Of a stretch of DNA of 64,000 nt, positions 3,051 through 45,300 are shown in pieces. A model generated the notes under the pieces. It was not told where the DNA came from and ran no database searches. It saw only the letters and a program-made list of their open reading frames with translations. Within the stretch, counting starts at the first letter, position 1; each line of letters starts with the position of its first letter. The stretch spans positions 12,648,001 through 12,712,000 of the forward strand of contig NW_024704752.1 in NCBI RefSeq assembly GCF_018977255.1, read 5' to 3'. The translations under genes were made by a program, and so were the position numbers. The DNA comes from Callorhinchus milii. Taxonomy: Eukaryota.

Positions 3051-6000
3051 CTAGATATTCCGAAAACACAAAGCAGAACATAGATAAATCTTCGATTGCA
3101 GTCTGGGTATCGCAACTAATCAGAACATCAGTTTTTTGAAACGAGCAGGAAAATTCAAACCCAATTAGACAATATTTATTGTTCATTGCTACCTACTGTT
3201 GAACCTACTATAAACCATTTCATCAGAACAGTACTGTCATTTAGACGTGGCACTTACATGAGCATAGTTCTTAGCTTCAGGAAGTCATTGTGCTCTGGAT
3301 TCTCCACTTCGACTACTCCCCATGGGTATAGGCGGCCTCTGACTTTTTTACCCTTTGCTTCAATTAGTTGATTTGACCCAACCACTGCGAAAGGGATACT
3401 GGTCTGTATTCACAAGAAGAGCATCATTTTAATGCAATACTACAGTCAATATGTCAAATACATATGTCTGAGAATTTCAACCAGTGCAAACATTGACTTA
3501 TGACAAAAGGATAAGAAAGAGCCAGGCAATGCTTCACCAGAAATAATAATAACATACAAGGAGTTTAGATTTTAAACATCTGTCCTCTACCTTAAGGACT
3601 CGAGTTTGCTCCTTGAAATCTTCATCCTCGTCAGACTCTGCATCTGGAAGGTGGTATATTCTAATTCCATGCTCTTCAATTTCATCCAAAATCTGAAAAA
3701 GAAACCATGGACCTATTGAAAAACGGATAATCATCACAGAATTTGGGATTGCCTTGTAAATATATATATTATATAATATATACACACACACAGGGAAAGT
3801 AGTACATTGCGGTGTGGTTTCATGCTCCAAATTTAACAGATCCTTCTTGCTTATATCCTGTACAATACCTGGTTAATTAGAGCTGTTTTATTGCAGCCTG
3901 ATGAAGTTGGCCTAGCAGGGTATAATACATTTGATTCAATCACCAACAGATTCAAGGGAGATAGATCGCAGTGGCCTTTCACAATTTTATACATTCCTAT
4001 ATTCCTCAGTGAAAGAAAACTGGCACTTTAAATCGACTGCAAATGCCAATTAAGGGCACAAAGCCCACAATATTGTGCCAGAACTCATCTAAAAAAAGGA
4101 AAACATCCAAATTTTGCTCAAGCTGTAAATTAAAGCTAAAAACACAAACTCCAGTGTTCAGCTGCACAGATTTCTAAAATAAACATCTTGTAGTTACAGA
4201 TTCAAAATGGTTGCCTTTTCTGCATTCAGGCCATTCGAGGCCTCTTTCAAGATTACATCCCACCAATGTTTTTTTTGCTACCTTAACCCCATAATACGTG
4301 TCATTCCTGGATCTAGAATTGCCCCTGGATTGCTGCAAATGAGTACCCACTACACTAGATGTCACAAGAATTATTACACTTCAGCAATTATTGGTTTCAC
4401 ACTTAAAGGAACAGTTTTTACACATTTATCAGTAATTTATTCTCGTTTCAGACAAGACCTGAATATTTGCTAATCTCCGTACCCTTCTCTTGAGCCGCTC
4501 CCTTTCCTTCAGTGTGAGAGTGTCTGCCTTAGCAATCACAGGAACAACATTCACTTTGTTGTGTATGGCTTTCATGAACTCCACATCCAAGGGCTTCAGG
4601 CTAGATAAACACAAGATAAAACAGAGAGATGCTGGGAGAGTTTGCTGAGAACTTGTTTTATTTAGAATATAAAAAACATTTTCCTCCCTCTAAAGACATC
4701 GCATCGACTTTTTCTATAATACATTTCCATGAGTACTTCATCAAAATGGCCTCATAGGTGCCTAGATTGTGAATATCGGAATCGAGTCAATCCTCTATGA
4801 TGGTCTCATTAGTCTGGTTCCTAAACCAGGCTACTTACTGCTGATGAAACAGACCACTGAGCCTGGTTCGTAAGAAGAACTTGGAGGGGCAGATCGGTGA
4901 GCTCCCGTTAAGACCCCGCAAGTCCTATCTGGACAAGCAGCTTGTCAGACAGTGCTCTCAATAACACCCTATGTGGTTTTACCTGGTTAAACTCCAGCAG
5001 TAGCCCAACAATTACTCTGTAATCCCTAAGCCCTGATTACCAACCTTTACCAGATACTCTCTGGAATTAGCTAAAATGGGTGCATCGTCCAGGAAGAGAG
5101 TACAGTTTCCACTACACTTTGAGGACATTTGATGTATAGCACCATTTGCATCATGAGGACCCTTAAAATGTCTTTTTTTTGCAGACAAATGCCTATGTTT
5201 TCTGTGCTGTACAGAGGATAATGCGACACAATTCTATCAGGCAACATGCTTACCCATGGCCAAAAGGAGAGATGAAATAAAAGCAGCAGTGGACTCGGTT
5301 ATCAACAATGTGGCGTCTGTTCAGTCCACTCTCGTCATGCAGGTAACGCTCAAACTGCTCGTCAATGTATGAAATGATGGTTTTAAAGCTGGGAGGAAGC
5401 AGAATTGAACAATGAAGAACATTGTGAGAGCTACAATCATCTGGTCAGGGACACAGATAATCCTTCAAAGCAAGCAATGCATCGAATGATGACTGGGGAA
5501 TATCAAAGCACTTGTACAGGTAAGCAAACACCCTATATCAGTGCTTTAGTATGTCAAACCCATCCAATGACAGATTTTTACATCTCAGCAATTCAAAGCA
5601 ATTCCATCAGGTCCTTTAATTTGACTGAATCATACAAGATCCAGAAACTGCATTATTATGTACATGTCACCATATTAAAATAGCTATAAATGACACCCAC
5701 CCCCTCCCCCAAATGTCACTCCAGAAAGAGATACAATACTGCAAGGTAATAAAGAGGTTTAACACTTCTAATTTATTCAATTTCTCCAGTTTTTGTACAC
5801 TTCCATTTAGATATAGGAGCGATCTCCCTTTAAGAACAGCTACACTGGGAGTGTGTTTTTTCCATCTAATCTCAATTCACATAGAGTGAATTGTGTAGTA
5901 CATTATGTAGTACAATTAATCCAATTTATTGCACACCTTCTCTGCTGCAAGCAGAAAAATTGANTTTTTTACAAACGTTTCAATACCTGTTAATCAGTCA

Positions 6001-21399: not shown

Positions 21400-21850
21400 C
21401 CCCTCCGAGTCGCTTCCTCATCTTTGTTAGGACTTCGCATCTCCCAAACCTCCCGCCCCCCCCCCCGCCCCGTGGGGATGGACCCCCCGCCCCGCCCTCC
21501 CGGTGCGGCCCCGCGGCAGAGAAGGAAGAGAGCAACAGAGGGCGGTTCCCGTTCCCTCACTTACTCTCCGTGCAATGCGGTCGAGGAGGAGCGGTGGCGA
21601 CTCGGGATAAAGAGGCCGAAACGCCGGGGCTCTCTGCTCCGGGGGGAGGGAGGGAGGGGGGGACTCGGTTACGGTGCGCGCGGGGGCGGAGGGGGGGCGG
21701 GCGGTCGGCGCTGGACTCACGGCACCGACTGTGGCTGATCCGGGCGGCGCCGCAACCCTCGCGATACTGGAACCCTCCCCCAGACTGCACCGCGCCAGAG
21801 GCGGACACAACACCGTCATCGTCCCCCACCCCCCCGCCTGCTTAAAGGGA
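21400..21850 (-). promoter_or_regulatory. CpG island / SEPT2 promoter with candidate non-coding first exons (donors after 21565 and 21721)
   Basis: Dense CpG with GC-box-like runs; minus-strand donors CACGGAGA|gtaagt and GGTGCC|gtgagt face the SEPT2 acceptor at 13741. Confidence 0.75.
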
Positions 21851-22005
21851 CAGGCACACGCTTCTCCGTCTTAAAGGGACAGGCACACGTTTCTCCATCT
21901 TAAAGGGACAGGCACACGTTTCTCCATCTTAAAGGGACAGGCACACGTTTCTCCATCTTAAAGGGGCAGGCACACGTTTCTCCATCTTAAAGGGACTGGC
22001 ACACG
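21841..22005. repeat. 29-bp tandem minisatellite, ~5.7 copies (CTTAAAGGGACAGGCACACGTTTCTCCAT)
   Basis: Units start at 21841, 21870, 21899, 21928, 21957 and 21986 (partial), with 0-2 mismatches each. Confidence 0.95.
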
Positions 22006-22009
22006 CCGC

Positions 22010-22219
22010 TCCCCTCCCTTGCTTCCTTCAATCCCCATCTCAACACCTGTCTCTTCGACTGTGCGAGAGTGACGGTCACTCTCCTACCTCCACCTTCCCT
22101 GCCCTTAACCTCTCCTGATCCCAATCCCCAGCTCGGGTGCACATCCTTGACTCTCTGGGGAACTTTGGGACGTCCTCCCAACGTGAAAGACCCTATACAA
22201 ATGTAATTTGTTGTTGTTG
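22010..22219 (+). mobile_element. L2 3' tail fragment
   Basis: ctttgggacgtcctcccaacgtgaaagaccctatacaaatgtaatt(tgt)n. Confidence 0.75.
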
Positions 22220-22229
22220 CCATCTTAAA

Positions 22230-22550
22230 TAATAATAATAATCCTTGCATTTGATATAGCGCTTTTCACGTCTTTTAGACGTCCCAAAGCGCTTCACAGA
22301 ATATATTGTAAAGTGAATTGAATGTATATTTGTGGGCGAACGCGGCAGCCAATTGCGCACAGCAATGTCCCACAAACAGTCGTAGATTGAAAATGACCAA
22401 TTTATTATTGTTTTTTTTTGGAGGGATTATTATTAGGCTCTGTGTGGAGTAAGGAAACTTGCCCAAGGTTTCGCCCTCTGCCTGGAATTGAACTCGGGTC
22501 TCTCACTTGCAAAGCGAGTACTCTAACCACTGAGCTACAGGACTCCACAG
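22230..22550 (-). mobile_element. Full-length tRNA-derived SINE (Deu-type body, L2-like tail)
   Basis: Minus-strand head TAGCTCAGTGG (A box) and GAGTTCAATTCC (B box); body gctgtgcgcaattggctgccgcgttcgccc; tail gcgctatatcaaatgcaagg(att)n. Confidence 0.9.
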
Positions 22551-22689
22551 AGTCCTTAAAGGGTCAGTCACGTACTTCACCTGCTTAAAGGAAAAACTAC
22601 ACAGCCGCTTGGAAGGGCAGACAGCATCTCAGTTTCAACAAGAACAAATTACATTTGTATAGCGCCTTTCACGTCAGGAGGATGTCCCA

Positions 22690-22840
22690 ACTTATCTAAA
22701 GGACACCACCTCCAACAATGCAGCACATTCCTGCATTGGAGTGCCAGCAGACTATACGGCTTCCCAGTCCTGACGTGGGGCTTAAATCCACAACCTTCTG
22801 ACTCCGAGGCAAGAATGCTACCAACTCAGCCACACTGACA
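22690..22840 (-). mobile_element. Older Deu-type (SacSINE1/AmnSINE-like) SINE 5' part
   Basis: Minus strand reads tgtcagtgtggctgagttggtagcattcttgcctcggagtcagaaggttgtgg...; related to ~55183-55500. Family name is from recall. Confidence 0.6.
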
Positions 22841-23256
22841 ATATTATAAAGGTGTATTAAATTTTAAATTGGATTGAGGTAGTAAACCCAAAACAATATT
22901 TTTGATACAGCTGTTCTTGATTTGCACATTACAATTAGGATAAATTGTATGCACACACAGTGCATGCAGTTAAATTTGTGGGATAACTATTTCTCCAAAG
23001 TACTTCTGAATGTGAGTGATCTATGCTTAGTGCATTGACCAAGAGTCTTCCACTACGTTGCCCCATTGCCAAACAAAGATTTTGTCTGGACCAGGGACTC
23101 GCTGTGATTCTCTTTATTTTTATTTGGGATTCCTTGAAATTAGTATCCCTGCTAACAAACTAGGAATGGTATAGATCGTAATCTTGATATGTTGATTCCC
23201 AAGAAGGCAGATTTTGTACAATTATAAATTTGGCAGATTTGGTCAAACTGTTTTAA

Positions 23257-23820
23257 AACAACAACAACAAGATTTCATTTATAGAGCGCCTTTCACGTCA
23301 GGAGGACATCCCAAGGCGCTGGACTGTTGGGTCAGGACCCGAGCAGGAGTGAAATGGTCGAGGGGAGGGAAGGGAGGGAGCGAGGAGGGGGTAGAGAGTT
23401 GAGAGGGGAGGTCAAGGCACGGTCAAAGAGAAAGGTCTTGAGACTGGCCTTGAAGGAGGAAAGGGAGGAAGCGGCGAAGGCACTGGGGGATGGAGTTCCA
23501 GAGCCTCGGGGCTGAGAGGCTGAAGGCCCGGCTACCGATGGTAGGGCAGTTGGGGCGGGGGATGTGGAGCAGACCGGAGCCAGAGGAACGGAGGGAGGGG
23601 GATAGTAGGTCAGACAGGTAGGAGGGAGCAAGGCCGTAAATGGCCTTGTAGGTGAGGATGAGGATCTTGAATTCGATCCTCTGGGGGATGGGGAGCCAGT
23701 GGAGGCGAGCGAGGGTGGGAGTGATGTGGTCGTGAAGCCTGGTGCGGGACAGCACATGAGCTGGAGGGAGGTGCCAGGAAGGCCGGCGAAGAGAGAGTTC
23801 CCATAGTCCAGCCTTGAGGT
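23257..23820 (-). mobile_element. L2-clade LINE 3' fragment
   Basis: ORF 23423..23863 contains HITPTLARLHWLPIPQRIEFKILILTYKAIYGLAPSYL...APRLWNS; tail ends in (gtt)n. Confidence 0.92.
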
Positions 23821-24496
23821 GATAAAAGGGAAAAAAATTCAAATTAAATTTTATTTTATCCACTATTACTGTAAATGTTTAGTGCGACAAATTGAAGATC
23901 ATATGTAATGTCCCAGAGAATTCCTCATCTTGTACTGTGGGAAAGCATCAAGCCACGATGAAAGGAATATGGAATTAGAGTGTGGGAGAATGGTTTGAGT
24001 GGTTTCTTATGGTAAAAGTTCAAAGTTTCTACTTTGTAACACTGTTTATGCTGTCAATGAAATCCAAAGAGTACATCACATTAAAGCAGCATTTCAAATG
24101 TAATCTCCTGATCTGTTAATTTTTATCTTGATCATTTTCCTGCTGTTGAAAACTGTTCTTTTATTCCTGTATCAATGTCAAAGAACACTTTTGAAAATCA
24201 AGCCATTTTGAATGTTATCAACATTGTGTTTTGAATTGGCTGATTTTTGTTTGGTTCAGGCTTTTTTTACATTCTCATCTCCAAGTGACTGCTAGGGGTT
24301 GCTTGTCTGACTGGCCATCAGCCCCCATTGGCTTAGTCAACCACTCAAAAATCATGCACATCTTCTTTCTTTATTAGGCAAAGTCATTTTAGAAAGAAAA
24401 TGGGATTGGCATCCACCAGTTTGTGGATAATTCCAGTTTATGTATCACTAGCAGCATAACATTTCAGCACAGCAATTTCCAGATGTGGATGAAAAA

Positions 24497-24950
24497 GCAA
24501 CAACAAACAAATGACATTTGTAAAGCGCCTTCCCCACCGGGAGGACATCCCAAGGCACTGAACAGTCAGGGATCCGGACACGAGCAGGGTTGGGATGAGG
24601 GAGGGCAGAGAGTTAAGAGGGCGGCCGAAGGCACAGTCAATGTTGCAGAGGTGGCGGATGGCAGAACGGGTCATGGTACGGATATGGGGGAGAAAGGACA
24701 GCTGAGGGTCGAACAAGTTGCCCAGGTTTCTGACTGGCTTGGTGAGGTTGAGTGTGCATCCGTGGATGTTGATACTGCCAGTGTCTGAGGGCCTCGGTCT
24801 TGCTGGCATTCAGCTGTAGAAAGTTGGCTCTCATCCAGGACTTGATGTCTGACAGACAGTCTGTCAGGATGTCAGTTGTCCTGAAATCAAGGATGGAGAC
24901 AGAGAAATAGAGTTGGGTGTCATCCGCGTACATGTGGAAGTTGACCCCAG
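24497..24950 (-). mobile_element. Internally deleted L2 LINE relic (RT YADD region joined to the 3' tail)
   Basis: FHMYADDTQLY...CLSDIKSWMRANFLQLNASKTE followed directly by tail sequence. Confidence 0.88.
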
Positions 24951-25924
24951 GTCTGCAGGTAACCAGGAAGCAGCCAGGGTCCTGAGTCAAACCCTTTATT
25001 GCCATGACTGGATCTTATATGCTAAATGAGAACCACAAGACTTTGCCATTTGACTGGTAGAACCAGGACAGTCAAGTCATATTACTCGACATGTATGACA
25101 ACACACATATATTAAGTCATATATGTCATGTATTAAGTCTGCAGATAGAATTGATTTCCACATGGAGACTAAGAACATCTTAAGCATTTTGAGTATTGTT
25201 TGCATTTTTTGAATATGGTTAACATAAATGACCTCCTACCTTTTCTATCCATAATTTAGAGTCCTTGAAGTTTTCACTGGTTGGCCTTGCTGTGTGTACA
25301 TTTTCCTGTGGCTTCCTTTACATCTGAGGTATAATTGTATTTTTGTCAATATTTTCCCAACATTGTGGCCCAAGGACAGGTTGCAGTCAAATCTCTGTAT
25401 ACATTCACTCGATGGCCTAATGTGTAAAGGTATTGCACTGTGTAAAACTATGCCTTACAGAAAATAAAGGTGCAGTCACAAATAAGTTTGTTAATTTAGT
25501 TGATACCAGCTGGGGCACCAGTTGGATTCTTAACTGGCATCAATCCACTTGGGTTGAGAGGGTAAAATCTAGAGGTTTTGCTCCCAATTGCCTATAAAGA
25601 GCCCCAATGAAGTTTCGTGAGGGATATCTGGTGAGCACAGGATCGGCTTAACTATAATATCCTTCCCAGAGTTGAAATAGACTGCCAAAACTCACAAATG
25701 AAGCTCACGTGTGATCCTTAGCCACTTTAGATGATGAACTGGAGGGTGACTTGTACCATGGAATCATATTCCAATAGGAGAAGTGAGTCAAACACGACCA
25801 GAATTGGAAAGGGGAAAATTAGCGCAAAATAAACTGGATAATTTTTGCATGGGTTTTTCTTCTAGATTGCTACATTTTGTATCTCACATGAGGATGTCTT
25901 TTACTTGACCATAAGATAGGCCGA

Positions 25925-26765
25925 CCTCCCTCTCCATATATCCCCCCTCTCTCCATATTTCTCCCTTTCTCTCTGCCCCCTTTCTAAATACCTCTCACTC
26001 CCTACTTTATCTTTCTCTGTCCTCCTCTCTCCTGCACTCTCTCCTCTCCCTTTTCTTCTCCACCCCTCTCAATTTCTCCTCACACTCCCCCTTATCTCTC
26101 CTCTGTCTACTTACTCTCCTCCCTCTCCTTTCTGTTTTCCCCCTTTGCTCTCCAGCAATTCTCCCACACACCCATTACCATTCTCTCCTCTTTCTGTCTC
26201 ACCCCCCCCCCCCCTCTTGCTTTGCCCCTCTCCTCTCTGCCCCCAACATTCCTCAATTGTTTCTCTCCCTTCTCCCTCTACCCCCCATCACCTCTTTATG
26301 CTTTCATTTCCCCCTCATCCCCTTTCTCTACAATCCCCTTCTCCCTCATCCCTTCTCTACAATCCCCTTCTCCTCCCTCATCCCCTTTCTCTACAATCCC
26401 CTTCCCCCCTCATCCCCTTCACTCATCCCTTCCCCCCCATCCCTCTTCCCCCCCACCTCATCCCTCTTCCCCCCCCACCTCATCCCTCTTCCTCATCCCC
26501 CTCATCCCTCCTTCCTCCCCATCCCTCTCCCCCCTCCTCATCCGCATATCCCTCTCATCCACCTTTCTCCCTCATCCCTCGTACCCGCCCTCCCCGTCGT
26601 CCACCTCACCTCTCCCCTCCCCCCCTTTACCCTTCTCTCATTAACCTCATCCCTTTCTCCTCTCTCTCTCTCTCTCTCTCTGTCTCCCACCACCTCATCC
26701 CTTCTCTCCCTCTTCCACTCTGATTCCGCTCCCCCCCCCCCCCCCCCCCCCCCGCCCCCCTCCGC
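25925..26765. repeat. Long polypyrimidine/polypurine (C/T) low-complexity tract with internal degenerate repeats and (CT)n
   Basis: Almost purely C/T on the + strand; the unit cctcatccc(ct)ttctctacaatcccctt is repeated at ~26312-26405. Confidence 0.9.
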
Positions 26766-26779
26766 CTGTGTGTGTCTCT

Positions 26780-27617
26780 GACGTGTGAGCGGGTGATTGG
26801 CGGGCGGGGGGCGGGGGCCTGGGCCGGGCCTGCCTCTCGCTATAAGCCGGCGGCCGCCGTGTGATCCCCATCACATTGGAGTTCAGGAGCTTCTCCACCA
26901 GAGAGGGCTACAAGGACACCACCAACCCGTGAGTACCCAGGACCCGGGGAGGCAGGGGCTCGGAGCCGGCGACTGGGCCTCTCAGCGAGGACGGGGGAGG
27001 AGGGAGGAGGAGAGAGAGAGAGAGAGAGGAAAAAAAAAATATATATATGGACGCGAGTGAGTCCGACCGCGTCTGAGAGAACGGCGGCGACCAGAGAAAA
27101 AGGCGGCGGCGGCGAATATTATTTCCTCCCGTCCTCGGGGAGGTGTGAGGCGCGGGCGGACGGGCGGACGTGAAGCCGGTTGTGCAGCGGTTGGTGGAGG
27201 GCCGACGGCGGCGACGGCGGCGGCGGTGACAGCCCGGGCGGCGTGTTTTACCCCCCGGGTCGGCCGGTCAGTCAGTCAGTCGGTCGGTCAGTCGGTCGGG
27301 CCTCGGCTTGGGCCTGGTCGGTGGTGTGGAAGTGGCCCGGAGCCGGGGGCTGGTAGTGGAGGCGCTGCCGGGCTCGGGGTGGGGTGGGGTGGGGTTGGGG
27401 TGGATGGTGGGGGGTGGGGAAGGCCGCTCAGACATGAGCCGTTTTTTTTTGATTTTTTACCCCCCCCCCGAGCGCCGCCGCCGCCGTCGGGTCCGGCGCT
27501 ACGTGTCACCATTACGGCTGCGCACAAACTCTTCCCAAAGTTTTTTTTTCCCCCTCAAAGTTTGTCCAAAAGCTTTCGAAGTTTCCCCCGAAACAAACCT
27601 TCTGAAAGAGGGCCGAG
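26780..27617 (+). promoter_or_regulatory. CpG island / HDLBP promoter; candidate first exon ~26870-26928
   Basis: GC boxes (GGGGCGGGG ~26807), TATA-like TATAAG at 26841, donor CAACCC|gtgagt at 26929; CpG-rich up to the assembly gap. Confidence 0.7.
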
Positions 27618-28400: not shown

Positions 28401-31400
28401 TCCTCTCTTTCTCACCCCCACACACATTTCTTTTAAAAAAAACTTTTCTCCCCCCTCCCCTCCCTGTGTCCCTTTCTTCTCCCACCCCCCGCCCCCCCCG
28501 CCCGCCATCCACGAATGGATTGATTATGCAACGAGTAAGAGTTTGCTACGTGGAATAAACTGGAGGAGATCTGCCGAAGTGTGCGGCCAACACACACTCT
28601 CTCTCTCTCTCTCTCTCCCCCTCTCTCACTCTGCTCTTGTCTATTAAATTCCAATTCTTCCCATTTTCTACCCACCCATTTTATTTTTGCTGTACGATTT
28701 TTTTTCCAACACCCCCCCCCCCCCCTCCCCTCCCCTCCTTTCCCTCCCTCTCTCCCACACACACACACACACACTTACTTTTTACCTTCCCCCCTCCCAT
28801 CAAACCCGGTGAGTTTTATTTTATTTTCCATGGTGTTTTCTCCTCCTCTCTCCCCCCCCCCCCTACACCCCCACCCCGTCTGCCTTTCTCTCTCTCTCTC
28901 TCCCTCTCCTCACACACACACACACACACACCACCATCACACACACAAATACAGATTTTTTTCCCCCAATCCGCTGTCTGGTGACGTTGTCAGTTTCTGA
29001 AGCTCCACGCGGACATGCCTTAAAATGCAGAAAAGATTTTATTTATTTTTCTCTCTCTCTCTCTCTCTCTCTCTCCCCATTACTTTTTTTTCTCTAACCC
29101 ACGCGTTGGTGGTGGGTGGGTGGTGGGGGGATTCGATCCCCTGACAACTGCCTGGTAATTGCAGTGAGTGTGTATGTGTGTGTGGCGATGTCCATTAAGA
29201 GAGCGCAACAGTTGCTGAGTTGGCACAGGCTGTCACTCGCCCTTTGCTCCATTTGAAGTTGGTTTTAATAGAGTGCAGTTCTTATTCGATGCGTGTTCCT
29301 GCTTTTTTTTTAAACAAAAAAAATTAAATTACATTTTTTTTATGTTTTTAAAAAAAACACACACACACACACAGTTGGAAATATAGGCGGAAACCGTAGA
29401 GAAGGAAGGCTTGGGGGTTTTTTTTTATTCAAAAGGGACCCTGTGTCGATTGCGATCTGTCACTTGCAGAGTAATCTGGATTTGTTTAAGCAGAGGTCAC
29501 TAATGTAATGCATACGTGGGACCATCATGCACTTTCCGAAAAAAAATGATCGTGCACGTATTGCTGTACTTTTTTTTTAAAAAACAAAAATAAGCCTGAC
29601 CAACTGATCGGGCGTAATGCAATTCCTACCGGAAGATTAATAGTGATCTATTCCCTTTCCGACCCTACCAATTTTTTTTTTAAAAAAGGCATTGAACTGG
29701 GGATTTGGTACTTGTATCGGTTGCGCAGTGGAGCGTGGAGTTGAACACGAGCAGGTGGCGCTTGATTGTGTATCAACATTTTTTTCGCAATTAATTGATT
29801 TCTTGTATGATTGCATTTTGACATACTGTCAGGGTGAGAGGTTGAGTAGGTGAGCAGTGCCTTCATAGCACCCATTCTCGTGATGTGCAAGATGAATGAT
29901 CTAGATGTGGTCAAAGCGTGTTCCGTAATGCTTATTCTGGGAATTGCTCTTAGATATTAGTTCAGGATTTATTGATATAAGGAGGGAATATACACGGAAT
30001 ACTATGGAAGTGTTTCTTAGCCACAGTGTTTGCCACCTTATCCGTGAAGTAAGTTTGCCATGTTTTGTAGTAAATATCCTTGCCAGACAAAAGAAACCTG
30101 TTAGATGAGTGCATAAAAAGGCAGTGGCTTAAATGGTTCAACAATTTAATGTTGTGTTGGATTCTAAACATGAGAAGCAGTTGTAAAGTTGCATTGGAAG
30201 GTATTATCACTTGGTCCTGAAGTAATTTTCAATCTGGTTTCTCACTTGCCGGCTTGTGAAACGTTTTCTCATGAGAATTGTGCACCTTTAAGAGTAATTA
30301 CCCTCGAGATCAACAGCAATATTCCTCTTTGAGCAAAGTTCAGTTTATCAAAAACCATATGCAAGTTCTTTTAACTGAATATTATCTTATAGTTGAACCA
30401 TACAGATAATATCTTCGGACATTACAATTAGCCTCTATGTCTAGGTCAGAGAGGTGAAAGTCAGACCAAGTTCGACTGATTGGTTTTCAGAGACTCCTTT
30501 GCAGGTGTAAGAACAAGATCAGCCTCAGGAGGCAGTTTGGCTGCATCAAATGTTTCTGGCACTTACTGTCAGCTCACTCTGAATCAAATCACTATGTGGT
30601 GAATTACTGAAGGATGCCTGTGGGAATGTACCCCTGTAGAAAGAAGGAATTTAGTGCATTTGGGGGGGCTGGGGGGAATAAAAATTACTGTTACACAACT
30701 GCTTCTCCACTGCCTGATTCCTTTCCTTCAGAAACGCTTTCCTCCTGGAGTGGGGGTTTTAAATTGCACTGGATCTGTGGAAACAAAAGAGCACATGGAA
30801 ACTAGAAGATATTTAGTGAAAATGCCTTTGATTAGTTTTAAAACGAAGGAAAATTATGAAGACGTTACAACCTCTTTCAAAATCATTTCAGCAGTTTGCC
30901 TTGAGATCTCAAGTCAAAACAATGTTCCCTTTTAAAGGGACGCTGGAATGTTTTTATATGTTAATTATTCAAGTTGGTTCCCAGGACTGCTCCTGTGCTT
31001 CAATGTCTTTAAGACAGGATCTCAAAGGTGAATTGCGCACCTTTGGTTGAAGGAATGTGCGTCATGTGAGACGCAGACAAGTCTGTCAAATTGGCCATTT
31101 TAACAATGTAGGTACAGTAGCATTGAATTGGAAACAAATCCTATGAGCTGCTGCCTTAGGAGAAGAGGGGTTGTTGGCCAATCAAGGAACAACAGCAGTT
31201 GTGGCTGAATATTGAGAAATGCGCTCCAGGTACAGGTCATAAACTAAAAGTGGCCTCTGTAGGAACTGCAAAATAAATAAATTGAATCAAATGTATATAA
31301 AACTGCATGAAGGTGAATGCTTTGAACAGCATCTGCAATTGTTCTGGATGAAGCTCAAAGCTGGAATCCAATGATTGTTCGGGGTTGATGGAAGCTCGTC

Positions 31401-38494: not shown

Positions 38495-38570
38495 ATCAAA
38501 AAGCTGGCAGGCTGACACGGACGGGAAGCCTTTCACAGGACGGACTTTCTGGCAACTGACCATTTAGCTG
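38495..38570 (+). other. HDLBP: HDLBP non-coding (5'UTR) exon
   Basis: ctgctctcttacag|ATCAAAAAGCTGGCAGGCTGAC...CATTTAGCTG|gtgagg; resembles the mammalian HDLBP leader exon as I recall it (not aligned here). Confidence 0.8.
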
Positions 38571-39218
38571 GTGAGGGCATACATTTTTATGTATTTCACT
38601 TTATAAACTGGTCAACACTACCAATTTAGATGCTGCATGAGTCACATTTGAAGCAAAGCACACTCAAAATTATAGTCCAAATATACTTGCATCCTGTGTT
38701 ACATGTTGAACATTTAATTGCACCTGGGTCAAATATAGACCATCTTCTACGTTACCATAAAGGTACAATATTTCTATTTTTAAATAAAAATAGATGCAGT
38801 TTTTTACTTGGATCTAAGGAGTGGCCATTTGACAGAGTTTTGAAAGGTCACAAACCCAAATGTTAATCTGTCTATTCTGGATTCTGATTGTCTGGCATTC
38901 CTGTTTTATAATTTCTTAAATATTTGTTTTTTTCCTGTTTTGCGTCCATTACTACATATCGTCCATTCCAGCACTCAACACATAATGGCAAATATTTGCC
39001 TTCCCCTTATTAAAAGTTTCCTCGTTAATGATTTGAATGTTGTGTGATTAAGCCTATATTAAGTTATTAAGGGGGGGCGGAAGGAGGGTTACAGTTAAAT
39101 GTAACCTGGCATTGCAAGGAACAGTCATAGCTGTAGAGCAGAGTAGCGACTTGAGAGATGAAGAACAGAGTGAGTCAAGTAGGGACAATTGTTGCCAAAC
39201 GTTTAAAGATATAATACA

Positions 39219-39537
39219 TAATTAATAATAATTCTTGCATTTGATATAGCTCTTTTTCATGTCTTCTAGACAACTCAAAGCGCTTCACAGAATATACTGT
39301 AAAGTGAATTGACTGTATTTGTGGGCGAAACGCAGCAGCCAATTGCACACAGCAGTGTCCCACAAACAGTCGTGGATTGAACATGATCAATTTATTATTG
39401 TATTGTTTTGGAGGGATTATTATTAGGCGTGTGGAGTAAGGAAACTTGCCCAAGGTTTCGCCCTGTGCCTGGAATTGAACCCAGGTGTCTCGCGTGCAAG
39501 GCGAGTGCTCTAACCACTGAGCTATAGGGCTCCACAG
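39219..39537 (-). mobile_element. Full-length copy of the same tRNA-derived SINE
   Basis: Co-linear and highly similar to 22230-22550. Confidence 0.9.
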
Positions 39538-39544
39538 CGATTCC

Positions 39545-41440
39545 CAGCGATCACATATCCCCTTGAAAAATAAAAATACCACTGGAAAAGTGGTTCAACC
39601 TTGGCTAACTAGAGAAGTTAGGGAAAGTATAAAATTAAAAGAAGAGACCTATAATACTGCCAAAAAGAGCAGTAAATCCGAGGATCGGGAGGGCTTTAGA
39701 GATCAGCAAAGGAAAACCAAGAAACTGATTAAGAGGGAGAAGATGGAATATGAGAGTAAACTAGCTAGGAACATAGAAGATTGTAAGAGTTTTTACAAGT
39801 ACATAAAGAGGAAGAGACTATCAAAAGTGAATGTGGGTCCATTACAGGCAGAGAACGGAGAAATTATAATGGGGAATAAAGAAATGACAGTCATTAAACA
39901 ATTATTTGACTGCTGTCTTCATGTTAGAGGACACTGAAATTTACCGAAAATAGAGGGGAACCTGGAAGCTAATGTTAGTGAGGAACTTAAAGAAATGAAC
40001 ATCAGTAAAGCAATAGTACTAGGAAAATTGATAGGATTAAAAACCGATAAATCCCCTGGACCTGATGGCCTCCATCCTAGGGTTTTAAAAGAGGTAGCTG
40101 CAGAGATAGTGGATGCTTTGTTTTTGATCTTCCAAAATTCCCTGGATTCTGGAATGGTTCCCAGTGATTGGAAGATCACAAACGTATCGCCAATATTTAA
40201 GAAGGGTGGGAGACAAAAAATGGGGGACTATAGACTAGTTAGCCTGACATCGGTGGTAGTGAAAATTCTAGAGTCCTTAGTTAGGGATGTCGTTGTGGGT
40301 TATTTAGAAAATTGTAACATGATTAGGCTGAGTCAACATGGCTTTACGAAAGGGAAATCATTTTTAACAAATCTTAGTTTTTTGAGGATGTAGCTAGCAG
40401 GTTAGATAGGGGGGAACCAGTAGATGTGGTATATTTGGATTTCCAGAAGGCATTCGACAAGGTGCCAGTTAAGATTGCAGCCCATGGAATTAAAGGCAAT
40501 ATATTAGCATGGATTGGAGAGTGACTAACAGGAAGAAAATGGGAGAGTAGGGATAAACGGGTCCTTCTCAGATTGGCTGGTTGTGACCAGTGGAGTGCCA
40601 CAAGGATCAGTGCTTGGGTCTCAATTACTTAGTCTATACCAATGATTTAGATGAGGAAATATATTTTAATATATCTAAATTTGCGGACGATATGAAGATA
40701 GGTGGGGGTGTAAACTGAGGGTGTCACACGAAGAAAGCAAAGGGAAATAGACAGGCTAGGTGAGTGGGCAAGAAGATGGCAGATGGAGTATAACGTAGGG
40801 AAGTGTGAAGTTATTCACGTAGGTAGTAAAAATAGAAAAGCGGATTATTTTCTAGAGGGGGAGAGACTAGGCAGTGTTAGTGTTCGGAGGGATCCGGGTG
40901 AGACCGCACCTAGAACATTGTGTGCAGTTTTGGTCTCTATTTAAGAAAGGACATACTCGCCTTAGAGGGGGTGCAGCGTAGATTCACTAGGTTGGTTCCT
41001 GGGATGAGGGAGTTGACCTATGAGGATCGGTTGAGTAAACTAGGCCTATATTCTCTAGAATATATAATAATTAGAGGTGATCTTATAGAAACCTATAAGA
41101 TTCTGAAGGGTCTTGACAGGGTAGATGCTGTGAAACTGTTTGGAGAATCTAAAACTAGGTGTCATGGTCTCAAGATTAAGGGTCAGCCTTTTCGAACTGA
41201 GTTGAGGAAACATTTCTTCACTCAGAGGGCAGTGAATTTGTGGAATTCTCTACCCCAGAAGGCCGTGGATGCTCAGTCCTTGAACATATTCAAGACTGAA
41301 GTTGATAGATTTCTAAAGGATAGAGGGGTTAAGGGATATGGGAATAGGGCGGGTAAATGGAATTAGGATAGAAGATCAGCCACAATCTTATTAAATGGCA
41401 GGGCAGGCTCGAAGGACCGAATGGCCAACTCTTGCTCCTA
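39545..41440 (+). mobile_element. 5'-truncated, decayed CR1-clade LINE (ORF2 reverse transcriptase and 3'UTR)
   Basis: ORF fragments KSPGPDGLHPRVLKE, QHGFTKGKS, YLDFQKAFDKVP, KFADD and FFTQRAVNLWNSLP, broken by stops and frameshifts; CR1-type 3' end gaatggccaactcttgctcct. Confidence 0.95.
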
Positions 41441-42320
41441 AACATTTCTCTGCCCATTCAAGGATTATTGTTTCCATCTGAGATCATGTCTTCCTGGTAT
41501 GAATGGAAACTGAAGCTGACAAACTGGAATGACTGCTTTACTCAAAGCAGTCTACCTTACTGCTGACAGCTTTGTATTGCATTTCTGAAGATTTGTGTCT
41601 GCAATCCATAAAGATGTTAAATTTTACAGAATATTTGGATGATTAAATCATACGTTATGTAGAAAGATTTTGAAGTTTCTTGTGATGTTAAATGTAATTC
41701 CTTTTATATTTGCATAACTTCAGATGTATGACCTGCCACCCAATTGAGGTTAAGTGGCATGATGCAGTCTCCAAGAACTTAATTCCTAAAGATTTTGTTT
41801 GTGTTCAATCCTGTAAATGTACCTCTGTACGTTTTCTCTGTTTTTATTGGTAATATATAGAGGGGAAAAGAAAGAGAGCTAACTAATTTGTATAGGTTAA
41901 ATCTATTGACTGGGGTCTCTGGTATGGCATAGTGGTCTTCAGTTTCCATTTGATCACCTTTTGAAAGAACCAGTCTAATTATACAAGATTTCTCCCATTG
42001 ATTTCCTTGTTAGTATCACGGTGAGCATTTGTGCATAGTAAAGAAGGTGCGACTGCCACTAGTTATGATGACACCAGAAACGAATATAGCATTGCATGAC
42101 GAGTTCTACCCAAAATGTCTGCTTCGCAGCTGCATTTAAACCAGGACATGGAAAGGATTGAGGAAGAGTAGTTAAATGTACTAGTTGCTCCCTTTACAAC
42201 ACTTGCCACTGTGATTGTTCAGCAGCCGATACTGAGCATACGTTTGAGGTTGGAGTGTATGTAATCATGGTTCTTTATTTCAGTGGCATACCCGGACCTC
42301 GTGTACGTGGGATATCGACA

Positions 42321-42396
42321 ATGAGCTCCGTAGCAGTACTGACGCCTGAAAGCTTTGCTGAGCACAGGAGCGGCCTCAGTGAACAGCAAGCCAAAG
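42321..42396 (+). CDS. HDLBP: HDLBP coding exon 1 (exon starts at 42284)
   Basis: tttcag|TGGC...ACA ATG AGC TCC...AAA G|gtcagt, 76 nt coding. Confidence 0.95.
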
Positions 42397-45300
42397 GTCA
42401 GTGCCAGGGCTTCCAGCTACTATGACAGTTGTACAGGTTAAATCATTAAATGCAGACCCTTCCAACAGTAGCTTCCATCACACATCTCAACATTAACACC
42501 GAATGGAGGGAATTGAGCATTCAATTCTCAAAATGAGTTCAAGTCCTGGGGTGATTTAAGTCTGGTGAGTCTCTCCTTTGTCCCCACAAATCATCTTATC
42601 TGACTGTCAGTCAGTCACTGATTCAGCCGGGTGAGTTTCTAGTGTTCTTGGCAGCACTATTGGAACAAGACACAGTATCATTGTTCCTCTTTTGTGGAAG
42701 GAGAATGTTCATAGAACAGCTTGAACCTCTTAAACTTGAAACTTGTAGGGCTTTGTTACAGAATGACTGACATAGCAGGCTGATGGCTGCAGTTGTGTGT
42801 AAGGAAGGGATTGGCATTATGGCCCTCAGCAAAACATTAGTTAGCAACCTAGGTTGAATATATTTGTATCTGGGGAATCGGATCATTTGTCTTTTCCTCC
42901 CTCTCTAAGTTGTTATATCTCACTGTCGCCACCTGAGCTATCCTTCATTTCTCCTGATGATCGGTAATAACTGCCTTTACACACAGTGCAGGTTTGGTTT
43001 CCAGATTTGGAAATTATTCTTGTGTTTAATGTTTGCACAAAGATTCCATTCAGAAGGTGCATGCTGCTTAAACACAGGGCTTCCTCACAAAGGCATGTAA
43101 TGGGATATCTTTAGTAGAAAGGACTTTTTTTTTACACAGTGATTCAATTTACAGTCAGTGTGAATATTACTTGCACATATTCCATTTGTGCTTTAAATTA
43201 TTGACTATTAATATTTCTATCACTTTTAAGAGTGTGGTAGGAGGAAAGAGCATTTGTTCCTTATCTTTTTAATCTGCTGTTGAACACCATCTCCTAGCAG
43301 ATGGGCATTCAGCTTTCAAAACTTCACTAATGATGTTGTATAAATGCAACAGGGAGGGCAAGGAAATAGTGGTCTTTATTTTGATGTGTTGATTCATTGG
43401 ATTGGCCAAATTTAGTATAAAAATAGTTTTGACTAATGCATTACTACAAACTTGGTTATATGTGTTTTTAAGGCTCTTCACTCTTGCTAACCTTAAATGT
43501 CATTCTCATGGTTACATTACGAGTTTCGGACACTAAGTGATTGTCTTGTTTGGCCTGTAGCAAATGTTGGTTCTGAAGATGAGACTGATGTAGTCCCGAC
43601 CTACAAAGAAGCCTTCCCTCCTCTACCTGAGAAAGTTGTTTCTGTCGAGGCAGCAAACGAACCAGCTGGAGCATGGACCAAAATCCGACCACTTAAATCT
43701 TCACTTATCACTCAGGTATGATGTATAGCTCTGCAACCTCAGCAAAATGGGGATTATGGTAACATAATGCAATTGTAGCATCCCAACTTGGTATTAATAC
43801 TTTTGAAGCTGCAACCTCCTAGTTTGTATGGCCTTGTAATTCACCGAACAGGAATTAATCTTTGCTATTGAATTTGGGGGGGTGTGGGGGCATTTGATTC
43901 ATGCTAGATCTGTTAAATGAGAACTCTGGAGCAGGTGTTTTGGTGGGCTGGATAGACGTTTCTGAAATCTGTTTATACGTGATGTTTCTGCTAAAACCTG
44001 GTTCCTTACTGGATTTCATCAGGTCTTTCATGTCCCTTTGGAAGAGCGCAAGTACAAGGAAATGAACCAGTTTGGGGAAGGAGAGCAGGCCAAGATCTGT
44101 CTGGACATCATGCAGAAGACCGGCGCACACCTTGAACTCTCATTGGCCAAGGATCAAGGTCTTTCCATCATGGTTTCTGGAAAACTTGAGGCTGTCATGA
44201 AAGCAAGGAAGGAGATTGTGGCAAAGCTTCAGACTCAGGTAAGTTTCTGCAGTTGGGGTGGGGGGAGAACATGATCTGATCTTGGTGATCTGGTCATTCA
44301 AAAGCAATTTAAGTACACTGTTAAGAGTGGCAATTTATGTGGTATTTGACATTTTCAGATATGTACCTGGTGTGTGGGCTTATAACCTAGTATTTTACTG
44401 CCCATGTTTATTTAGCTGTCTTGAAATCTGCCCAGGGATCTTTGACTGCCTGTATCTAGGTGTCTGTGCTTGTCCTCGTCTAACTGGCTGTGTTCGTCCT
44501 AGGCATCAGCAACAGTCGCCATCCCGAAGGAGCATCATCGTTTTGTGATTGGAAAGAACGGAGAGAAACTGCAGGAGTTGGAACTGAAAACGGCAACAAA
44601 GATCCAGATCCCTCGGCCTGATGACCCCAGCAACCAGATCAAGATAACTGGGACAAAGGAAGGAATTGAGAAGGCTCGGCACGAAATCCTGCTCATCTCT
44701 GCTGAACAGGTACCCAACGGGTGATGCTGTAACAATGAGGTTTTGTTAGTTGCGTCAATAACATACAGTGATATTTGCAGAACAAATTAAGTACTTTGTT
44801 ATTCCTTGAAAGCTTTCTGAATCTTCTCGCTGCCAATGTTTATTTTGACAGGAGAATAATTTAATAATAGCATTTTATATCTGATTCAAAACGCTTTGCT
44901 GAATTGTTCTGTTACCATATAACGCGTTCTAGAGACATAACTATGATCTAGCTCTCACACAAAATCACACAAATGGGCTTCCAGCCAAGACCTTATTTAT
45001 GTTAGTCTATTTGGCCGCAGCAGCAGGAATGCTAAGGCCTGTTGAAGGGTCTTGACTGAGTTAGCTATCTTAGCACAGTTGGACCTTTCTAGGCTCTGGT
45101 TCAGTACCACTTGGGCAGTACTTTGTGCTATCAGAACTCAAAGTATTTGGGGTTTCCAAAGTGTTGGACACTCGAAAACCTTTGTGTCAATTACTAGAAA
45201 GAAATATATCTTCAACGAAGGCAAATGCTAAAAGTACACAACACGTAGACTAAGATTAGATAGCATTGTAAACTACTGTTTGTATGTGATCATTCGGCAG

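Follow-up and report, generated by a model that had tools for sequence, protein, structure and literature searches.

The leader of the vigilin (HDLBP) gene in Callorhinchus milii was found to carry a conserved, AUG-less pair of upstream open reading frames (uORFs): one of 3 codons that opens at CUG, and one of 17-23 codons that opens at ACG. On balance the pair probably acts as a tunable brake on vigilin translation, sensitive to start-codon stringency and working through the positions of its starts and stops and not through a peptide. The window analyzed was a stretch of 64,000 nt (contig NW_024704752.1, positions 12,648,001 to 12,712,000), and all features described lie on its plus strand. 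A uORF of the AUG type is already known in HDLBP; the CUG/ACG cassette in the two leader exons is distinct from it. No description of this cassette was found in the literature listings and accessible passages on HDLBP/vigilin uORFs, non-AUG starts, leader, autoregulation and exon skipping.

Organization of the vigilin leader

Both near-cognate starts lie in a non-coding leader exon of 76 nt (38495..38570), identified from its splice signals, a contig joint and an orthologous exon in locus L007 with unrelated intron flanks. The exon is bounded by AG and GT. Its acceptor at 38495 was fixed by 75 letters on the short side of the contig joint. The following exon opens at 42284 and is preceded by TTTCAG. 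A GT..AG joint from 38570 to 42284 was present in contigs of three of four runs, from two studies; these runs were guessed to be RNA, none being recorded as such. As the spliced joint itself is present in contigs, the leader exon was taken to be transcribed. The first vigilin coding segment (42321..42396) was located by tblastn with the L004 protein and comprises 25 codons and 1 nt with a phase-1 donor. Contig pieces stop at 42396, which is also the last coding position of the ATG exon. The KH domain is encoded by a later exon. No upstream AUG occurs in either leader exon segment in the window, and none was found in the two leader exons of the three loci compared. A paralogue or second copy was not found in the animal's own genome.

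Two candidate first exons were predicted. A TATA box (26841-26845) precedes a candidate AUG-free exon at about 26870-26928 (feature 26841..26928). In a donor-anchored alignment with the upstream exon of L006 this candidate ranked first among 35 GTRAG donors and first among 1005 GT sites; it was not significant in an unanchored search across the window. The other candidate (28603..28808) is 82% pyrimidine, AUG-free throughout, and was proposed from the length of a contig overhang. One contig extends about 206 nt further upstream, which fits the donor of this exon. Alternative first exons of Hdlbp have been described, with no skip of the AUG exon in the accessible text of that paper (PMC13009247).

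The two near-cognate uORFs

The ACG at 38540 has A at -3 and G at +4 and lies 68 nt upstream of the vigilin ATG (42321) after splicing. The start and first 10 codons (plus 1 nt) occupy 38540..38570, as read from the sequence, L004, L006, L007 and a human table row. The 3' part occupies 42284..42324 by sequence and contigs. The frame has 23 codons and is closed by TGA 42322-42324, which overlaps the vigilin ATG 42321-42323. An in-frame TGA (38513-38515) closes the frame upstream; its start must lie at 38516-38540 or later. The earlier note had described this spliced 23-codon frame, its stop over the vigilin start, the AUG-free segments and the 37 nt between acceptor and ATG, and sequence and contig joints agree with it on each.

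The CUG mini-uORF (38504..38515) was overlooked there. It consists of three codons and a TGA, with A at -3 and G at +4, and was recognized from the sequence, from a 19-nt block identical in the window, L006 and L007, and from a match by position in the human table. It is as conserved as the ACG uORF and has the stronger context: in a reporter table from mouse cells with an artificial reporter, the CUG context scored 25.1/100 and the ACG context 14.2/100. These were the top two of five near-cognate sites scored (the others 3.4, 2.4 and 1.7). The conserved near-cognate starts coincide with the two best-scoring contexts.

To assess chance occurrence, the 113-nt leader was dinucleotide-shuffled 20,000 times. 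An ACG frame in strong context, at least 17 codons long and ending on the ATGA overlap, arose in 3.7% of shuffles, and the same pattern with any of CUG, GUG or ACG in 8.7%. Some strong near-cognate out-of-frame ORF of at least 17 codons arose in 31.8%, and 9.0% of the shuffled leaders were AUG-free. The ACG pattern of the single genome is just mildly unusual at 3.7%, and the case therefore rests on conservation.

Conservation across vertebrates

DNA comparison covered three complete orthologues, with L004 representing the bird type and L006 the teleost type. Both starts and their contexts were unchanged in the window and in the bird-type and teleost-type loci. The ACG and its context were also present in L007 and in one human table row, which places the ACG 68 nt before the coding sequence. 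From the ACG, 17 codons (51 nt) were open and free of indels in the window, L004 and L006, and human coordinates agree; in a mammal-type protein record the frame ends after 17 codons. The earlier note's view of a deeply conserved near-cognate uORF is thereby upheld, with one human study scoring the frame as translated. Its account of the human leader held for the position of the ACG, the context and the 17-codon frame, while the stated pattern of synonymous third-position changes was unconfirmed.

The flanks were less uniform. The linker before the ACG block had five lengths (36 nt in the window, 32 nt in P0027, and 28, 31 and 34 nt in the mammal, bird and teleost types). Past the block, the distance from acceptor to ATG was either 37 or 39 nt. 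In a further teleost-type copy, L005, the downstream part was lost. The two leader exons together (113 nt) showed 86-87% identity compared to 75-76% in the coding sequence, and no 3'UTR match was found between the compared loci. A run of 21 invariant nt spans the exon junction in the window and the compared loci. The start contexts account for about 16 nt, leaving these 21 unexplained. One study defines hyperconserved 5'UTRs by at least 250 nt of overlap with high-scoring PhastCons elements, and HDLBP is not named in its main text (10.1101/2020.06.29.165878).

The motif was present in 31 of 62 stored proteins; the invariance of T, D, L, T and D among these 31 follows from the search pattern itself and was disregarded. 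The leader motif gave 24 matches in viral contigs, taken as chance 16-mers, and none in prokaryote genomes. An Rfam search returned only a tRNA-like repeat.

Translation in human

Ribosome profiling had been named in the earlier note as a check on the ACG frame, and one human table supports it. In the accessible data of Ji et al. 2015 (PMC4739776) the frame is listed as translated, in a row for a 45-nt spliced uORF (22 + 23 nt) that corresponds to the ACG frame entered at a CUG 9 nt downstream of the ACG. Calling in that study was limited to NUG starts and did not consider ACG, so use of the ACG itself is inferred. A 12-nt human uORF in the same exon matches the CUG mini-uORF by position, its start codon being deduced from geometry; it was scored as translated and placed in the high-efficiency set (PMC4739776). 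The human rows carry no conservation beyond mouse and no assigned function, and in human the stop falls 14 nt short of the AUG (PMC4739776). Across the bases of the ACG uORF, the frame scored in a second human study was another one.

Alternative explanations

That the ACG frame encodes a micropeptide with a function, or a nascent peptide that stalls ribosomes, is unlikely. Of its 17 residues 12-15 are common to the compared loci, annotation pipelines for several named teleosts treat the frame as a small protein, and for the AUG uORF of HDLBP a synthetic peptide is reported to inhibit translation. Against this, the non-synonymous share of changed codons was 4/6, 5/6 and 5/7 compared to about 30-33% in the coding sequence (Fisher p 0.07, 0.017 and 0.034). 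Differences were spread evenly over codon positions, the other two frames looked equally conserved, and the human-mouse Ka/Ks was 5.0, on few changes. Four-fold sites in the frame differed in 1/12, 0/7 and 0/7 cases compared to 60-62% in the vigilin coding sequence (binomial P 0.0002-0.002, the pairs not being independent). The C-terminus is not constant, the frame closing after 17, 23 or 36 codons; the N-termini of the called teleost proteins are unrelated, and a Pfam search gave no match. With synonymous sites frozen, codon-position bias absent and a Ka/Ks of 5.0, the selected micropeptide suggested in the earlier note is not supported: the ACG and its frame were conserved, and a peptide-level signal was absent. 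Judged from three full DNA orthologues, the ACG frame appears free of peptide-level selection. A longer ORF entering from upstream, as in teleost gene models, was also considered and set aside, since in the window and P0027 the upstream block does not share the ACG frame and the model N-termini disagree. The block is in frame with the ACG in the mammal, bird and teleost types (28, 31 and 34 nt), which happens by chance about 1 time in 9 and leaves this candidate a small probability. The same frozen four-fold sites favor the main rival to the attenuator, in which the exon pair is kept as a nucleotide-level element (a protein-binding site, a small-exon splicing enhancer or a weak cross-junction RNA structure) and translation is incidental. 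This is a real if distinctly less probable possibility. It would accommodate the 21-nt invariant block, and the three cores can be folded into one architecture in which pairing involves only 4 of the 10 variable columns and, in the inner stems, a single one, as a wobble. However, the fold fell short of significance (p 0.135 by alignment shuffle; p 0.26, 0.07 and 0.03 for the single sequences), no compensatory double change was found, and pair probabilities were low in the full leaders of L004 and L006. The inner hairpin reaches only -3.5 kcal/mol, no Rfam family matched, and retention of the two best start contexts is left unexplained.

The overlap of the uORF stop with the vigilin start had suggested stop-restart coupling, by which termination on the TGA passes ribosomes straight to the vigilin AUG. 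This now seems very improbable. The overlap is common to the window and the bird-type locus, and UGGGA lies 13-9 nt before the AUG in both and at the aligned place in L006. In viral TURBS the UGGGA lies about 40-80 nt upstream, much further away than in vigilin. The overlap occurred in two of five cases and was shared by the window with L004/L007 only: the stop falls 16 nt before the ATG in L006 and 14 nt before it in human, and the frame runs past the ATG in L008. In addition, because vigilin starts ATG-AGY, any ORF in the ACG frame that reaches the AUG must end there. Across these loci the stop-on-start overlap is not conserved. A dual use of the ACG was likewise considered improbable. With exon 42284-42396 retained, the ACG would open an inhibitory uORF; with that exon skipped, it would start vigilin with 10 new N-terminal residues, since both donors are phase 1 and the skip stays in frame. 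The second coding exon (43561..43716) would then be in the ACG frame by coordinates; the next two exons hold no in-frame ATG, and vole and carp gene models carry exactly this junction (P0025, P0013). Yet a frame match has a prior of 1 in 3 and counts as one event, because intron phases are inherited. P0025 and P0013 are predictions, and the N-terminus of the vole model was found in 0 of the other 13 members of its cluster. The 38570>43561 junction was not seen in contigs, those examined ending short of 43561, and the would-be N-terminus shows no amino-acid selection. It is accordingly doubtful that splicing toggles the ACG across jawed vertebrates between an inhibitory uORF and the sole in-frame start of near-full-length vigilin, used under relaxed stringency when the 113-nt exon is skipped.

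Proposed mechanism and known systems

In the favored two-step attenuator, reporter values suggest that the CUG would capture about 1/4 of scanning ribosomes and the ACG about 1/7 of the remainder. In every case the ACG frame ends on the vigilin AUG, past it, or no more than 16 nt short of it. By terminating too near or past the AUG, most ribosomes that initiate on the ACG would be unavailable for vigilin. Post-CUG ribosomes would bypass the ACG 16-24 nt on, which is too soon for initiator tRNA reloading, and would initiate again 84-92 nt on, at the vigilin AUG. Relaxed stringency (low eIF1, high eIF5) or eIF2-alpha phosphorylation is predicted to give less vigilin.

The ATF4/GCN4 system of delayed reinitiation uses a short uORF1 and a longer inhibitory uORF2 reaching the main start, with a spacer of about 90 nt. 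The vigilin leader resembles it in geometry only, having a short uORF followed by a longer one at the main start. The vigilin starts are non-AUG, and since the spacing is just 16-24 nt the logic would be reversed, stress lowering output. The uCC of AZIN1/ODC and the ACG uORF of plant GGP are under amino-acid-level selection and have a fixed C-terminus. The vigilin ACG uORF shares with these their good-context near-cognate start and deeply kept open frame but lacks amino-acid-level selection and a conserved C-terminus or stop position. UGGGA at -13 to -9 and an overlap in a minority of cases also set it apart from TURBS.

Inhibitory uORFs sensitive to stringency are established, and those of Hox genes have, as in the vigilin leader, a conserved weak start upstream of the main AUG (PMC8892498). 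The Hox uORFs described there use a poor-context AUG (PMC8892498), whereas vigilin has a tandem good-context CUG and ACG with a predicted eIF1/eIF5 response. Structure-assisted non-AUG initiation (START) involves a hairpin near +20 with a stability of at least about -15 kcal/mol (PMC11165317); that of vigilin begins at +18 and reaches only the -3.5 kcal/mol given above. Within HDLBP itself, a 13-codon AUG uORF is counted as literature-verified (PMC3483550), and uORF control of vigilin translation has been proposed. This uORF starts with AUG in an upstream first exon, corresponds to 42-nt rows in the human tables, and lies outside the two exons studied here.

Vigilin promotes the synthesis of secreted and membrane proteins, and the accessible text of a review on it does not mention a uORF or the leader (PMC10939154). 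The cassette accounts for a set of small 'hypothetical proteins' that are spurious and for incorrect vigilin N-termini in the annotations of fish, birds and rodents, and the ACG uORF is a clean example of apparent peptide conservation as a by-product of nucleotide constraint. If the attenuator is correct, the CUG/ACG cassette, retained since the jawed-vertebrate root, would tie the level of vigilin to start-codon stringency or the integrated stress response.

The vigilin leader in the window

The vigilin (HDLBP) gene was located by a protein-to-DNA comparison, its exons being 59-99% identical to the 1267-residue vigilin of vertebrate locus L004. A KH domain was found in one exon. When exon 38495-38570 was spliced to 42284 an ACG at 38540 lay 68 nt 5' of the vigilin ATG at 42321. 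It opened 23 codons ending at TGA 42322-42324, and TGA 38513 closed the frame on its upstream side. No upstream AUG was present in either leader segment (the leader exon, and the stretch from acceptor 42284 to the ATG). The GT..AG joint of the leader exon to 42284 was present in contigs from three of the four runs examined (two studies) and an acceptor at 38495 was consistent with the 75 letters on the short side of the contig joint; the junction is therefore real. An earlier note had described this start, frame, stop over the vigilin ATG and AUG-free leader, all of which the sequence bore out, and its splice from 38570 to 42284 was the one found in the contigs. A strong ACG frame ending on the ATG occurred in 3.7% of 20,000 shuffles of the window leader, and some strong near-cognate out-of-frame ORF of at least 17 codons in 31.8%, so by itself the pattern is only mildly unusual.

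Septin-domain exons (3534-4689, minus strand) were identified by domain match, placing a septin gene upstream of vigilin, head to head. Human SEPT2 and HDLBP have the same arrangement. The promoter region between the two genes lies at about 21500-27000, with a 29-bp tandem repeat (21841-22005, 5.7 copies, 96% matches) near its septin side. The intron splitting the uORF contains a tRNA-derived SINE-like repeat (39210-39535; Rfam tRNA match 39469-39524) and, by eye, a degenerate LINE-like reverse-transcriptase stretch (39560-41440), both high-copy in the sequencing runs.

HDLBP is counted in PMC3483550 among genes with a verified uORF. Two short AUG ORFs of 2 and 10 codons were seen by eye at 28515-28559 (plus strand), 5' of donor 28808/28809, and, if part of a longer first exon, may be AUG uORFs similar to the one published for the human first exon. 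The verified HDLBP uORF is presumably a different, AUG-initiated ORF, which fits the 42-nt first-exon rows of human tables.

Conservation of the ACG frame

A pattern scan gave five vertebrate loci. L004 (spliced) and L007 (genomic) were classed as bird-type from likeness to a starling model. L005, L006 and L008 were classed as teleost-type, L006 via named matches and the other two as inferred from their own sequence. The vigilin coding sequence of the window was about equally distant from both types. L004 had the ACG at -68 with the same 23-codon frame and stop/start overlap. In L006 the ACG was at -70 and the frame stopped after 17 codons, 16 nt 5' of the ATG; a mammal-type protein record likewise ended after 17 codons. 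Only the downstream exon was covered in L008, where with assumed phase the frame extended beyond the ATG (36 codons), and in L005, where it had diverged and stopped two codons in.

The ATG-exon leader of L005 (137-162) was diverged and 26 nt long, and this teleost-type duplicate may have lost the leader element. The end of another coding sequence lay about 170-280 nt 5' of the vigilin ATG in L008, on the same strand and within the intron before the ATG exon, which suggests a nested or adjacent gene. The first 55 nt of L004 (1-55) duplicated part of its own coding sequence, attached mid-exon to the leader, and are probably an assembly or template-switch artefact.

The human ACG is at -68 in the same context in a table row of PMC6528255. 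A translated spliced human uORF of 45 nt (22 + 23 nt) in PMC4739776 is the same frame, entered at a CUG 9 nt 3' of the ACG because the method described there admits NUG starts only. If the 37-nt spacing holds, the human frame ends 14 nt 5' of the ATG. The human ACG and frame given in the earlier note are thus both on record. A second human study scored a different frame across the same bases. The human frame is already catalogued, as a table row only. The literature text that was searched, with the recent review PMC10939154 among it, describes neither the ACG start nor the CUG/ACG pair, nor how far they are conserved; supplements of initiation-site studies may list them. The ACG uORF is real and deeply conserved.

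An upstream CUG mini-uORF

A further start was overlooked in the earlier note. The CUG at 38504 has A at -3 and G at +4 and begins a frame of three codons followed by a stop (38504-38515). The 19-nt block containing it was identical among the window, L006 and L007. PMC4739776 includes in its high-efficiency set a human 12-nt uORF that lies 59 nt ahead of the end of the exon; its position matches the mini-uORF, the start codon being inferred from the geometry. Reporter values in PMC5778536, where an optimal AUG is set to 100, were 25.1 for the CUG context, 14.2 for the ACG context, and 3.4, 2.4 and 1.7 for three further near-cognate sites of the leader exon; values were taken for five out of 15 near-cognate codons. 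The CUG-to-ACG distance was 36 nt in the window, 31 in L007, 34 in L006, 28 in human and vole, and 32 in protein record P0027. The upstream block was in frame with the ACG at three of these five lengths, and since the distance varies the two blocks are not a single reading frame everywhere.

Nature of the constraint

The two leader exons were 86-87% identical between loci versus 75-76% for coding sequence, and 3'UTRs gave no match between the compared loci. Codons were compared among three full DNA orthologues, a small sample whose pairs are not independent. Four-fold sites in the ACG frame differed at 1/12, 0/7 and 0/7 versus 226/367, 235/383 and 273/454 in coding sequence, and 4/6, 5/6 and 5/7 of changed codons were non-synonymous versus about 30-33%. 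Differences were spread evenly over codon positions and did not confirm the synonymous third-position changes given in the earlier note, and the other two frames appeared equally conserved. Human-mouse Ka/Ks for the human ORF in this frame is 5.0, from few changes. The codon pattern indicates that constraint on the ACG uORF acts on nucleotides, with no peptide signal. Of the proposed "deeply conserved near-cognate uORF or micropeptide", the conserved ACG, context and frame stand; peptide selection does not, given the frozen four-fold sites and non-synonymous excess, and a functional peptide is very unlikely. Several teleost annotations call the frame as a hypothetical protein of 54-79 residues; these look like gene-model artefacts, as their N-termini are unrelated. 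Six public vigilin models from fish, a bird and a vole (P0009, P0010, P0013, P0022, P0025 and P0026) carry the leader frame in their N-terminus, wrongly or speculatively.

In the ACG frame the leader exon has a phase-1 donor, as does the ATG exon in the vigilin frame. Were the 113-nt ATG exon skipped, the ACG frame would therefore run on into exon 43561, and neither of the next two exons has an ATG in that frame. The vole (P0025) and carp (P0013) models contain this junction, but it was absent from the other vole-cluster members (0/13) and the frame match has a prior of 1 in 3. Such a non-AUG vigilin isoform is highly improbable. Stop-restart coupling, proposed from the stop/start overlap, was not upheld and is the least probable reading: the overlap was present in two of five cases, and is automatic because vigilin begins ATG-AGY and any ORF in the ACG frame reaching the start ends there. 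A purely nucleotide-level element is the main rival to the reading proposed below, though less probable. The 21 nt around the leader exon junction were invariant, and the 51 nt from the ACG could adopt a common fold in the three loci, in which a small hairpin spans the junction and begins at +18. The shared fold was not significant (alignment shuffle p 0.135, three loci) and showed no compensatory change, and the leader element had no Rfam match. Structure-assisted non-AUG initiation is described in PMC11165317 as needing roughly -15 kcal/mol, whereas the junction hairpin reached -3.5 kcal/mol, far short of this.

A proposed two-step attenuator

We lean towards a two-step near-cognate attenuator in the vigilin leader. 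The proposal is based on the conserved starts and contexts, the AUG-free exons and an indel-free 51-nt block starting at the ACG. The ACG frame always ended at most 16 nt from the vigilin AUG or past it. Translation of both frames is reported for human only, in one study (PMC4739776); the different frame scored by the second human study speaks against the proposal. Starting at the ACG would withdraw ribosomes from vigilin. Translation of the CUG mini-uORF would let ribosomes skip the ACG, 16-24 nt further along, and reinitiate at the vigilin AUG after 84-92 nt. The balance may be moved by stringency factors or by eIF2-alpha phosphorylation.
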